This document shows, piece by piece, positions 17,443 through 32,000 of a DNA stretch of 32,000 nucleotides. The position numbers and the translations under genes are program-made. The DNA lies in the NCBI GenBank assembly GCA_048886185.1, contig JBHLKY010000003.1, positions 150,595-182,594 of the forward strand. Reading direction: 5' to 3'. This DNA is from Candidatus Hermodarchaeota archaeon. GTDB lineage: Archaea; Asgardarchaeota; Heimdallarchaeia; Hodarchaeales; Hodarchaeaceae. The stretch's first letter is position 1. Each line of letters starts with the position of its first letter. The notes under the pieces are model-generated. The model was given only the letters and a program-made list of their open reading frames with translations. It made no database searches and was not told where the DNA came from.

Positions 17443-17545
17443 TGGGCCCACCCGGATTTGAACCGGGGATCTTTTCCTTAACATTTGGAACAAATGTTAT
17501 CTCGGTTATCAGCCGAGCGCTTTAACCAGGCTAAGCCATGGGCCC
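17443..17545 (-). tRNA. trnI: tRNA-Ile(GAU) with a 28-nt non-canonical intron at 43/44 (17473-17500)
   Basis: GGGCCCA/TGGGCCC acceptor, CTCGG-CTGATAA-CCGAG anticodon arm, CCCGG-TTCAAAT-CCGGG T arm. Removing the 28-nt hairpin insert gives a normal 75-nt tRNA. Confidence 0.93.
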
Positions 17546-28228: not shown

Positions 28229-28456
28229 GATTAGATTCACCTATTTGCTTATGCAATTCTTTGTGTTAGATTACTCGAGTAGGTAGAATGATTTGGGGTT
28301 ATAAGGATTGTTGGTTTCTATCATACGCCTTCCTTTTTTACATTGAAATTATGCAAAACCTGACTGACATCAATAAGTGATTTAGTAGAAACGTTGTTTT
28401 TTAAGATAAATCAGGATTTAAAGGATAACAGAGATCCCTTGGATGCTGAAAAAGAA

Positions 28457-28647
28457 CGCCAGGGGAGGGATTCGAACCCTCGAGTACAAAAAGTACACTG
28501 GCTTTCTGACACAGGTTATAATTCCTTAATGACTCAAGGCCAGCGCCTTACTACAGGGAAATGGGAGACCATTAACCCATCCACTTGGCTTTCGAATTGT
28601 AATACTCCATGGAGATTTAAAAGTGAAAGTATCTACAAAACCCCGGC
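28457..28647 (-). tRNA. trnS: tRNA-Ser(UGA) with three introns: 8/9 (28591-28639, 49 nt), 18/19 (about 28551-28581, 30 nt), 37/38 (28504-28532, 29 nt)
   Basis: GCCGGGG/CCCTGGC acceptor with G73, GCC/GGC D stem, CTGGC-CT-TGA-G^A-GCCAG, long variable arm GTAC/GTAC, GAGGG-TTCGAAT-CCCTC. The spliced product is an 83-nt class II tRNA. Confidence 0.9.
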
Positions 28648-28672
28648 AAAACGGATAGTTAATGATTTATTA

Positions 28673-29122
28673 TCATGTTTTATAGTCGTACATCACAATT
28701 GTTCCACCAATAGCTACAATAGTCAGGATGATTCCCATGATTAATAATGTGATGGATGTCCTTGCATCATAAGCGAATCGTGTAGAATAACGGATTAAGT
28801 AAAGGCCTCCTGAACCTATACTGAAAAATAGGCCTGCTATTAAAGATTCTACTAAGAATTGTTCACTTGAAGATTGAAAAATTGGTACAAGTTGAGTGGC
28901 CGTCTGTCCCATCGGTAGTGGTTGTTCTGTAACATCGTAAAGTCCACCAGCTAGAATGAATACAGTTGCAACGAGTATGAGGGCCAAAATATATTTATGG
29001 GGTGCTTCATAGGGGAGTTCGATATCTGGAATCCTAAAATCGATTGTGGGCTTTTTAAGGCCTGGGATCCATGGAAGTCGTTGTGGATTTTCCTTAATTC
29101 TTTCAGGTTGCTTTTTTGACAT
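28673..29122 (-). CDS. OSTC/DC2-like (OST3/OST6 family) oligosaccharyltransferase subunit
   Basis: Three TM segments. ILAGGLYDVTEQP and SEQFLVESLIAGLFFSIGSGGL match the eukaryotic OSTC pattern GGxxYDxxxxP...QYxxExxxxxxxFxxGxxG as I recall it. Confidence 0.8.
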   Translation of the reverse strand: MSKKQPERIKENPQRLPWIPGLKKPTIDFRIPDIELPYEAPHKYILALILVATVFILAGGLYDVTEQPLPMGQTATQLVPIFQSSSEQFLVESLIAGLFFSIGSGGLYLIRYSTRFAYDARTSITLLIMGIILTIVAIGGTIVMYDYKT

Positions 29123-30465: not shown

Positions 30466-30573
30466 TGGTGGACCAGCCGAGATTCGAACTCGGGGGTTGT
30501 GGATATCCAGGGGTGAATCCCATGGAAACTCCGCCTTGCGAAGACGGCGTGATACCAGCTTCACCACTGGCCC
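30466..30573 (-). tRNA. trnA: tRNA-Ala(CGC), CCA encoded, with a 32-nt variable-loop intron (best fit 45/46, 30497-30528)
   Basis: GGGCCAG/CTGGTCC acceptor with the G3:U70 Ala identity pair, CCGTC-TTCGCAA-GGCGG, CCGAG-TTCGAAT-CTCGG. It is 76 nt after removing the insert. Confidence 0.93.
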
Positions 30574-31155: not shown

Positions 31156-31516
31156 TTATTGTCACTTCCTTATCATAATAGATCATTATTCTCTTTCGAG
31201 AATTACTAGTAAATTCTAACCATATTGTTAGCGTTTTTGCTTTATTCACACAACACATTATTAGTTAGAATTATCTTACTTCCATTTCTAGCATTTTTCA
31301 CAGTAAGTTTATCTGTGTAATGGAATAGATTCTAGCTATCTTGCAGAAAAAACTAGCCCACCTCCTACAAAAAAGCAATAGGGGTTCGTTAATAGCTATG
31401 AGAATTAATCAATAAATATATTTTAACTAGTCCCATGAAGAATACAATTTTATTTAACTTACCAATAAAAAAAATTAAAGGTTTCTTATTACCCTCCTTT
31501 TATTATAAGAGGAATT

Positions 31517-31715
31517 TGGGGACGGCCGGATTTGAACCGGCGATTTTCGGACATCCTGCGATTAGCAGAGATGACACCGAGTTTCCTCATTTTTCCAGAA
31601 CTTCATCATGAGTTTCAGTTAACCCAGTGGAGTTCACAGGGGGTTCTGGAGCCCGGCGCGATACTTACCCGGTCTTATTAGAAGCTAACAAGACCACTAG
31701 CTTCGCTACGTCCCC
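31517..31715 (-). tRNA. trnW: tRNA-Trp(CCA) with three introns: 18/19 (31665-31696, 32 nt), 37/38 (31583-31645, 63 nt), 45/46 (31545-31574, 30 nt)
   Basis: GGGGACG/CGTCCCC acceptor, GCGA/TCGC D stem, CCGGG-CT-CCA-G^A-CTCGG, GCCGG-TTCAAAT-CCGGC. The spliced product is 74 nt. Confidence 0.92.
31583..31645 (-). ncRNA. Intron-encoded box C/D guide RNA in pre-tRNA-Trp
   Basis: CTGA at 31618-31615, ATGATGA at 31609-31603, ATGA at 31590-31587. The antisense elements pair with tRNA positions 33-37 plus the junction and with 38-45. Confidence 0.8.
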
Positions 31716-32000
31716 AATGAACGCTTAATATATGGTTGTTTTCTAGGATGAGGAAGAAGGAGTTTATTTTTAATAATTTTCGGCCATTAATATAAACATT
31801 GTACCATATGTTAAAAAAATCATTCAACAGAGAGGCGCTTGACAGGATTGTTATTGATCTTGTTCTTAAAAGCAATTAATGATTTATGAAACTTACCTAG
31901 CAGAAAAAGCCTTAAAATTTTGGATACTAGGTTTCTTTGATGATATACAACGAACTACTGATGTTAAAAACAAGTAATATTCAAAAAATCAATAACAAAT

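Follow-up and report, generated by a model that had tools for sequence, protein, structure and literature searches.

The tRNA-Ser(UGA) gene in the 32,000-nucleotide stretch of Candidatus Hermodarchaeota archaeon DNA analysed here (the window) carries a 49-nt insert between U8 and A9 which, judged by comparison with its orthologues, is a genuine protein-spliced BHB intron with exact boundaries. We consider it probable that this intron depends on a splice motif whose outer helix is built largely by the 5' leader of the pre-tRNA, and that it is removed before the RNA refolds and its ends are matured. The elements of the locus, numbered by their position in the window, are as follows.

28678..28684, minus strand: TATA-like box TATAAAA, 31-37 nt upstream of G1, seen in the sequence and conserved in orthologues.
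28648..28656, minus strand: 5' leader AUCCGUUUU (-9 to -1), in which -8 to -2 pair with D-loop bases 13-20, lengthening the outer helix h.
28457..28647, minus strand: tRNA-Ser(UGA) gene, 191 nt, with three introns between four exons and without encoded CCA.
28640..28647, minus strand: exon 1, GCCGGGGU (G1-U8), with C3-G6 as 5' strand of the central BHB helix and G7-U8 as the first two 5' bulge bases.
28591..28639, minus strand: intron 1, position 8/9, 49 nt; G1 is 28647, U8 is 28640 and A9 is 28590.
28597..28638, minus strand: intron hairpin h', with arms 28638-28628 and 28606-28597 and one bulged G.
28593..28596, minus strand: UUCG, 3' strand of the 4-bp central helix, pairing with C3-G6 and followed by the 3' bulge A-A^A9 (28592-28590).
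28580..28590, minus strand: exon 2, AGCCAAGUGGA (A9-A20); G10-C11 pair with C2-G1, and A13-A20 with the leader.
28550..28579, minus strand: intron 2, D-loop, about 30 nt; relaxed BHB of ambiguous register, 20/21 as given here or 18/19.
28533..28549, minus strand: exon 3 (A21-G37), AAGGCG CUGGC CUUGAG, including the anticodon UGA.
28504..28532, minus strand: intron 3, canonical position 37/38, 29 nt; H 3/4 paired, h 8 bp.
28457..28503, minus strand: exon 4 (A38-G73), 47 nt; anticodon-stem 3' strand, 4-bp variable arm, T arm and CCCUGGCG, which includes CCCUGGC, the acceptor 3' strand.
28449..28456, minus strand: UUCUUUUU run directly after the discriminator base, a likely terminator.

In-silico removal of the three inserts yields a regular 83-nt class II tRNA that ARAGORN identifies as tRNA-Ser(tga), with a 7-bp acceptor stem, a variable arm and a T arm. 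The intact gene is called neither by ARAGORN, with or without its intron options, nor by Rfam at the gathering threshold; run on the window, Rfam at this threshold gave only a tRNA-Ile at 17443-17545, and ARAGORN gave no tRNA. Rfam in E-value mode produced a 22.6-bit partial match to the 3' exon, modelled as a mini-tRNA, which we rejected for wrongly taking the anticodon-stem strand GCCAGUG as an acceptor strand. A BLAST search with the spliced sequence against the whole assembly (4.84 Mb, about 33% G+C, 96% complete) found only this locus and a distinct tRNA-Ser(CGA) gene that has no 8/9 insert. The gene is thus the only UCA decoder found in the genome, so it must be spliced to work, and since neither ARAGORN nor Rfam sees it, the genomes of this clade seem to have no UCA decoder.

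The first-pass annotation had described the 49-nt insert together with the pairings and bulges of its splice motif and cuts after the second bulge nucleotide, and all of this is borne out: the insert is exact against intron-less orthologues, every listed pairing and bulge is present, with a geometry kept in 15 orthologues, and the cuts predicted after the second base of each bulge yield precisely the sequence of the intron-less orthologues. With an exon 1 of just 8 nt, the tRNA itself contributes to the outer helix no more than G1-C11 and C2-G10. The central helix joins C3-G6 to the intron bases UUCG through two Watson-Crick and two G-U pairs, and is bordered on opposite strands by two 3-nt bulges, G7-U8^U and A-A^A9 (AU^A or AG^A in relatives). 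The intron hairpin h', UUGUA(G)AUACU / AGUAUUACAA, has six contiguous pairs, or ten with one bulge. The features that define an archaeal hBHBh' intron are all found here, namely the central helix, the 3-nt bulges, flanking helices of at least 2 bp (h being G1-C11 and C2-G10 plus seven leader pairs) and a cloverleaf restored on removal. By-eye inspection of the 49-nt intron revealed no C/D-box motifs. A canonical motif falls at the exact 8/9 boundary in 0.33% of dinucleotide shuffles of the intron. In a free BHB scan of the pre-tRNA, which left the register of the D-loop intron ambiguous, the 8/9 site ranked only about seventh, and many chance motifs scored as high. BHB-like motifs being this common by chance in the pre-tRNA, it is the comparison, not the motif, that carries the argument for an intron.

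A match was obtained in each of the 21 other species of the genus, and the orthologous tRNA-Ser locus was recovered in 20 of them. In six species, and in the second tandem copy of a seventh, GCCGGGGU is joined directly to AGCCAAG (intron-less alleles L008, L009, L010, L012, L015, L019 and L005 copy 2). Shifting the cuts by one base either way fails to give GCCGGGGU|AGCCAAG, and the 8/9 boundaries are therefore exact. A covariance model comprising the leader, exon 1, intron and exon 2 had insert-length matches in 15 of the 22 genus species and a short, intron-less match in three; it had no match in the 61 genomes covered from 17 further genera of the class, where divergent relatives could escape the model. 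The inserts measure 36, 43, 45, 48 or 49 nt and fall into at least five sequence families without alignable interior. Each nevertheless begins with one bulge base followed by a hairpin, and ends with the pairing bases, two bulge bases and A9. The last four pairing bases are UUCG, UCCG, CCUG, CCCG or CUCG, and in one case ACUG, with three of four paired; the central helix is thus fully paired in 14 of 15 orthologues, and the 3-nt bulges occur in all 15.

In the 15-sequence alignment, the 16 modelled pairs are standard in 93.3% of cells, as against 25-42% when partners are slid by one to three columns. None of 500 shuffles reaches the observed percentage paired or the covariation score, although these statistics overstate independence because the orthologues are close kin. 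In the central helix 98.3% of cells are paired, and change is confined to the intron side. The second pair of h' covaries (UA/CG/AU), and double-sided changes occur in h' and at leader pair -5:N16. Divergence lies in the introns, the exons being almost invariant, and the D-loop intron is present in every orthologue. When one genome of each prokaryotic species was scanned for the pattern exon 1 / insert / exon 2, this arrangement turned up in Asgard MAGs only, beside about 50 chance matches in G+C-rich bacteria. The matching MAGs are labelled Candidatus Hodarchaeota (including Hodarchaeum mangrovi), Heimdallarchaeota (B3_Heim, bin76), Promethearchaeota and, in one case, 'Thorarchaeota', and most of these records are identical in sequence to congeners within the genus. 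Wherever the upstream ORF is readable, the tRNA-Ser gene lies directly downstream of one small membrane-protein gene.

These comparisons also bear on whether the gene works at all. A decaying or non-functional tRNA gene, its insert being junk that is never removed, would be missed by standard finders just as this one is, and the tandem copy in the congener G012 does carry the insert next to an acceptor stem without a matching 3' strand. We regard this explanation as highly improbable, as the gene is the only one for Ser(UGA) found in the 96%-complete assembly and has near-invariant exons beside diverging introns, a perfect cloverleaf after in-silico splicing, conserved synteny and a splice motif maintained by compensatory change.

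Three of the intron-less alleles (G010, G014 and G017) have a D-loop intron of the family seen in the 49-nt group, and they nest inside the clade bearing the 49-nt intron, with 92/90 support, in a tree of the neighbouring protein of about 150 aa. This tree requires at least two changes of intron state; a single intron-less clade is not rejected by the AU test (p-AU 0.054), the group having been named after the tree was seen. With this p-value and this choice of group, the polarity of gain and loss is only suggestive; the nesting fits a recent, precise intron loss in the three alleles.

The short outer helix offered by the tRNA itself is lengthened to about 9 bp by the leader, whose bases -8 to -2 pair with A13-A20 of exon 2, giving two plus seven pairs around a single U x C mismatch. 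The nine bases upstream of G1 are conserved among orthologues, and two of the leader pairs show covariation: -5:16 is G-C in 12 sequences, A-U in two and G-U in one (this genome), and -4:15 is U-G in 13 and C-G in two. Shuffled leaders reach eight of eight pairs in 0.4% of cases. Complementarity of the leader is found in all 15 intron-bearing alleles, compared with three of the seven intron-less ones (G010, G014 and G017). The leader helix goes with the 8/9 intron and not with the D-loop intron, because the four remaining intron-less alleles have no complementary leader yet keep the D-loop intron; the three that do keep one indicate that the leader could have another role. No spare copy of the acceptor 5' strand (GCCGGGG- or GCCAGGG-like) occurs in the 50 nt upstream.

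The usual archaeal spacing between TATA box and start would place transcription initiation near -9. Transcription thus probably starts about 9 nt upstream of G1, a position estimated from a TATA-like box that is at the same time part of a coding sequence. With such a start, the pairing segment would make up all of the leader; a start downstream of -8 would shorten the leader helix. A predicted membrane protein of 149 aa, ending ...MYDYKT, is encoded at window 28673-29122 (minus strand), and its last codons overlap this box. A further step would be to see the leader as a dedicated cis-acting guide that templates the outer helix and hard-wires the order of events, with 8/9 splicing followed by refolding and then by RNase P and removal of the D-loop intron. 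We put forward this proposal tentatively, as having somewhat less than an even chance. If true, it would mean that folding information resides in the pre-tRNA leaders of the archaeal lineage named as closest to eukaryotes, and that a leader guide is one solution for introns located too near the 5' end to have an outer helix of their own.

The 8/9 motif competes with the structure of the mature tRNA. By definition of the motif, the four exon bases 5' of the bulge (C3-G6) make up the central helix, which is why the BHB and the acceptor stem are mutually exclusive. Likewise, the 8/9 BHB cannot coexist with the D-loop intron motif, since both need G10-C11 and A13-A20, as does the D stem. The BHB fold thus takes up the leader together with the 5' strands of the acceptor stem and the D stem, and excludes both the acceptor stem and the D-loop intron motif. 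The exclusivity of BHB and acceptor stem had been anticipated in the first-pass annotation, and on this point the motif geometry and the fold prediction agree.

Folding was predicted with ViennaRNA at 37 C from nearest-neighbour energies, for naked RNA without protein. A co-transcriptional prediction of this kind, which the first-pass annotation had suggested as a check, finds the nascent RNA in the BHB form to about +186 and the acceptor stem only at full length: the leader helix and the intron hairpin belong to the minimum-energy fold from the completion of exon 2 up to +186, and the 7-bp acceptor stem takes over from +188. The same switch is predicted in 11 of 11 orthologues tested. The 4-bp central helix itself, two of its pairs being G-U, is absent from the predicted minimum-energy fold of this gene, and it appears in the nascent minimum-energy fold only for the CCCG family, in which all pairs are G-C. 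For the full-length RNA, the acceptor form is predicted at -59.5 kcal/mol and the enforced BHB form at -51.9 kcal/mol, a gap of 7.6 that doubles without the leader (-59.7 versus -45.7 kcal/mol). The barrier out of the BHB form along the direct path is estimated at about 16 kcal/mol. In the BHB-enforced fold, the free acceptor 3' strand CCCUGGC pairs at GCCAGUG, a complementary segment formed by the anticodon-stem 3' strand and positions 44-45 (within 28457-28503, minus strand). Most orthologues have CCCCGGC as their acceptor 3' strand, and the match to GCCAGUG is weaker there, so this pairing is probably a coincidence.

The predicted stability of the acceptor form could also be read the other way, as a sign that the full-length pre-tRNA is mainly in the acceptor-stem fold and that EndA acts post-transcriptionally, either capturing a rare BHB conformer or cutting a relaxed motif. 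No order relative to RNase P would then be obligatory, and the complementarity of the leader would be incidental or otherwise used, as its retention in three intron-less alleles might suggest. Enzymes of the (alpha-beta)2 type are described as accepting relaxed motifs (PMC5829648, PMC4033280). We consider this scenario unlikely. The predicted BHB-compatible ensemble amounts to only about 5e-7 of the equilibrium population of the full-length RNA; with the acceptor stem intact, the 5' cut site would sit in a multibranch junction devoid of helix-bulge geometry; and the leader helix covaries and is present in all 15 intron-bearing alleles, against three of the seven intron-less ones.

We return to splicing from a leader-bearing precursor. 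Once RNase P has taken off the leader, a BHB of this form could no longer arise, and the 8/9 intron is thus most likely removed first, from the nascent or freshly made transcript with the leader still attached, if the predicted folds reflect those in the cell. A search for RNA runs containing the locus returned none, and three runs assembled there gave contigs of DNA only, without splice joints. An order in which splicing precedes RNase P had already been proposed in the first-pass annotation; geometry, fold prediction and comparison all support it, the leader supplying most of the outer helix and covarying with the D-loop. This support covers the order relative to RNase P, and does not extend to the RNase Z and CCA steps also named there. 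The refolding factor invoked there as one option is a different matter, as no evidence points to one. Nor is there support for its idea of a built-in maturation checkpoint, in which the competition between BHB and acceptor stem would have been selected as a quality-control or regulatory gate on the supply of tRNA-Ser(UGA). In its favour, the two folds are truly exclusive and the gene is the only UCA decoder found. Exclusivity, however, follows from the geometry of any 8/9 intron, with no need for a selected function, and the intron is dispensable, seven alleles of the genus being without it, including a nested subclade; moreover, intron sequences are unrelated between families, and introns occur at many other sites in the same genomes. 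We judge a checkpoint very unlikely.

The enzymes for such splicing are encoded in the genome. Two EndA paralogues (206 and 212 aa) lie on contig C8, both comprising an N-terminal and a catalytic (C-terminal) domain, and an RtcB is present (533 bits). One paralogue is closest to crenarchaeal catalytic alpha chains (PDB 3p1z, 3ajv, 2cv8 and 2zyz), which we take to be the Aeropyrum, Sulfolobus and Pyrobaculum catalytic subunits. For the second paralogue, the nearest relatives are the enzymes of ARMAN-2 and Methanopyrus (M. kandleri) and the N. equitans structural subunit NEQ261, its best matches of solved structure being units of the structural or epsilon type. From these similarities we read the pair as an (alpha-beta)2-type enzyme, one of the two EndA types reported to cut non-canonical introns (PMC5829648).

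In the sequence of events that we propose, transcription would start about 9 nt upstream of G1. As exon 2 emerges, leader bases -8 to -2 would pair with 13-20 and G1-C2 with C11-G10, forming the outer helix of about 9 bp. C3-G6 would then pair with the four intron bases that immediately precede the 3' bulge and, with the intron hairpin in place, complete a canonical hBHBh' motif, to be cut after U8 and after the last intron A. The two-paralogue EndA, read as an (alpha-beta)2 heterotetramer, would make the cuts, and RtcB would join U8 to A9. Finally, the RNA would refold into the cloverleaf, the other two introns would be removed and the ends matured; the spliced mature tRNA-Ser(UGA) would begin GCCGGGGUAGCC.

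Non-canonical and multiple BHB introns in archaeal tRNA genes were reportedly described by Marck and Grosjean in 2003 and by Sugahara in 2008. Such introns are well established in the Thermoproteales, and the positions given in a review are 20/21, 22/23, 25/26, 29/30, 30/31, 45/46, 53/54, 56/57, 59/60 and 3/4, with no 8/9 (PMC4090602). The intron described here shares with them the hBHBh' motif, cuts after the second bulge base, the enzyme type and its presence in a multi-intron gene, and their acceptor stem is already broken at 3/4. It differs from them in its 8/9 site, in a first exon of only 8 nt and in an outer helix that comes mostly from the 5' leader and not from the tRNA. The view of the first-pass annotation that 8/9 is not among the commonly reported sites thus holds for the review's list, but is weakened by the known acceptor-stem introns at 3/4, by a 2026 Asgard census (preprint) that mentions a few intervening sequences within the acceptor stem and at junctions, and by tRNAscan-SE 2.0, which scans flanks for motifs near the gene ends. 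That program adds 60 nt of flank to find BHBs near the 5' and 3' ends and removes introns iteratively, one motif sometimes forming only once another intron is gone (PMC8450103). The flank scan is a search heuristic, and the accessible portion of the program's description gives neither a covarying leader helix nor an 8/9 case (PMC8450103).

Near-universal interruption of tRNA genes has been reported in some Asgard lineages (PMC11291895), where the 2026 preprint counts 2.2 inserts per gene and repeated gains. These studies centre on Atabeyarchaeia and Jordiarchaeia (Freyarchaeia), and several Heimdallarchaeia lineages have fewer than one insert per gene; the accessible part of the Atabeyarchaeia-1 table has no intron at offset 8. 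Our case resembles the published ones in belonging to the same phylum, in most tRNA genes being interrupted, in inserts missed by annotators and in repeated gain or loss at one locus. In contrast, its host is Hodarchaeales-like, and leader pairing and fold competition are described in neither Asgard paper. Sequence outside the mature tRNA also builds the helix flanking the BHB in the split and permuted tRNAs of Nanoarchaeum, Caldivirga, Aeropyrum and Thermofilum; there, it brings together separate transcripts, two in number, or both ends of a permuted gene (PMC3218864), whereas here the pairing is in cis, from leader to D-loop within one ordinary transcript.

We found no paper naming an 8/9 intron or a covarying leader-to-D-loop helix; '8/9' is not searchable as a term, and older catalogues (Sugahara 2008, Marck and Grosjean 2003) may list one. 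What is new here is the covariation between leader and D-loop and the nascent switch from BHB to acceptor stem; as a kind of element, BHB introns at odd sites of intron-rich Asgard genomes are already established, and the advance is for that reason incremental. For annotation, it means that introns within the first ten bases, with leader-dependent motifs, need flank-aware searches. The locus also offers a natural test case, with 15 intron-bearing alleles, three that appear recently intron-less and four other intron-less ones, and it lends itself to asking in what way a splice motif comes to be folded at the cost of the acceptor stem, and whether tRNAs of archaea can be spliced during transcription and before their 5' ends are matured.

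Inserts are frequent in the rest of the tRNA set. Between 22 (Rfam) and 31 (ARAGORN) tRNA genes are called in the genome, most of them with inserts, and a load of this kind looks high for a genome of the class Heimdallarchaeia when set against the fewer than one insert per gene given for several such lineages in the 2026 preprint. A scan for T arms and acceptor strands raised the number of genes to about 34, among which only tRNA-Ser(UGA) has no D-arm sequence directly after U8. The tRNA-Ser(CGA) gene, at contig C3:85533-85680 outside the window, carries a canonical 37/38 insert and a T-loop insert of about 32 nt, with neither an 8/9 nor a D-loop insert. ARAGORN labels three multi-intron genes 'tRNA-Pyl(cta)', including one at window 31516-31716, and these labels are probably miscalls. 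A further tRNA locus in the window lies at 30466-30573.

Among the congeners, eight have orthologues whose T-loop holds a fourth insert, about 29-31 nt long (GGUUCGAAU|CUCAGGAUGUUAUUAU...GAAAA|UCCCUC), which the gene in the window does not have; the carriers are L004:1571-1790 (G007), L006, L008, L009, L012, L015, L019 and L005 copy 2. G007 and G003 combine 8/9 and T-loop inserts, and so have four introns in one gene. L005:1216-1489 (G012, minus strand) is a tandem pair of tRNA-Ser genes. Its copy 1, which has the 8/9 intron, is probably a pseudogene, given a changed 5' strand, GCUGGGA, that finds no matching 3' acceptor strand; copy 2 has neither the 8/9 intron nor a complementary leader. An estuary metagenome contig from another study is about 92% identical across window 28380-28760, and its 8/9 insert has the same length, with four substitutions.
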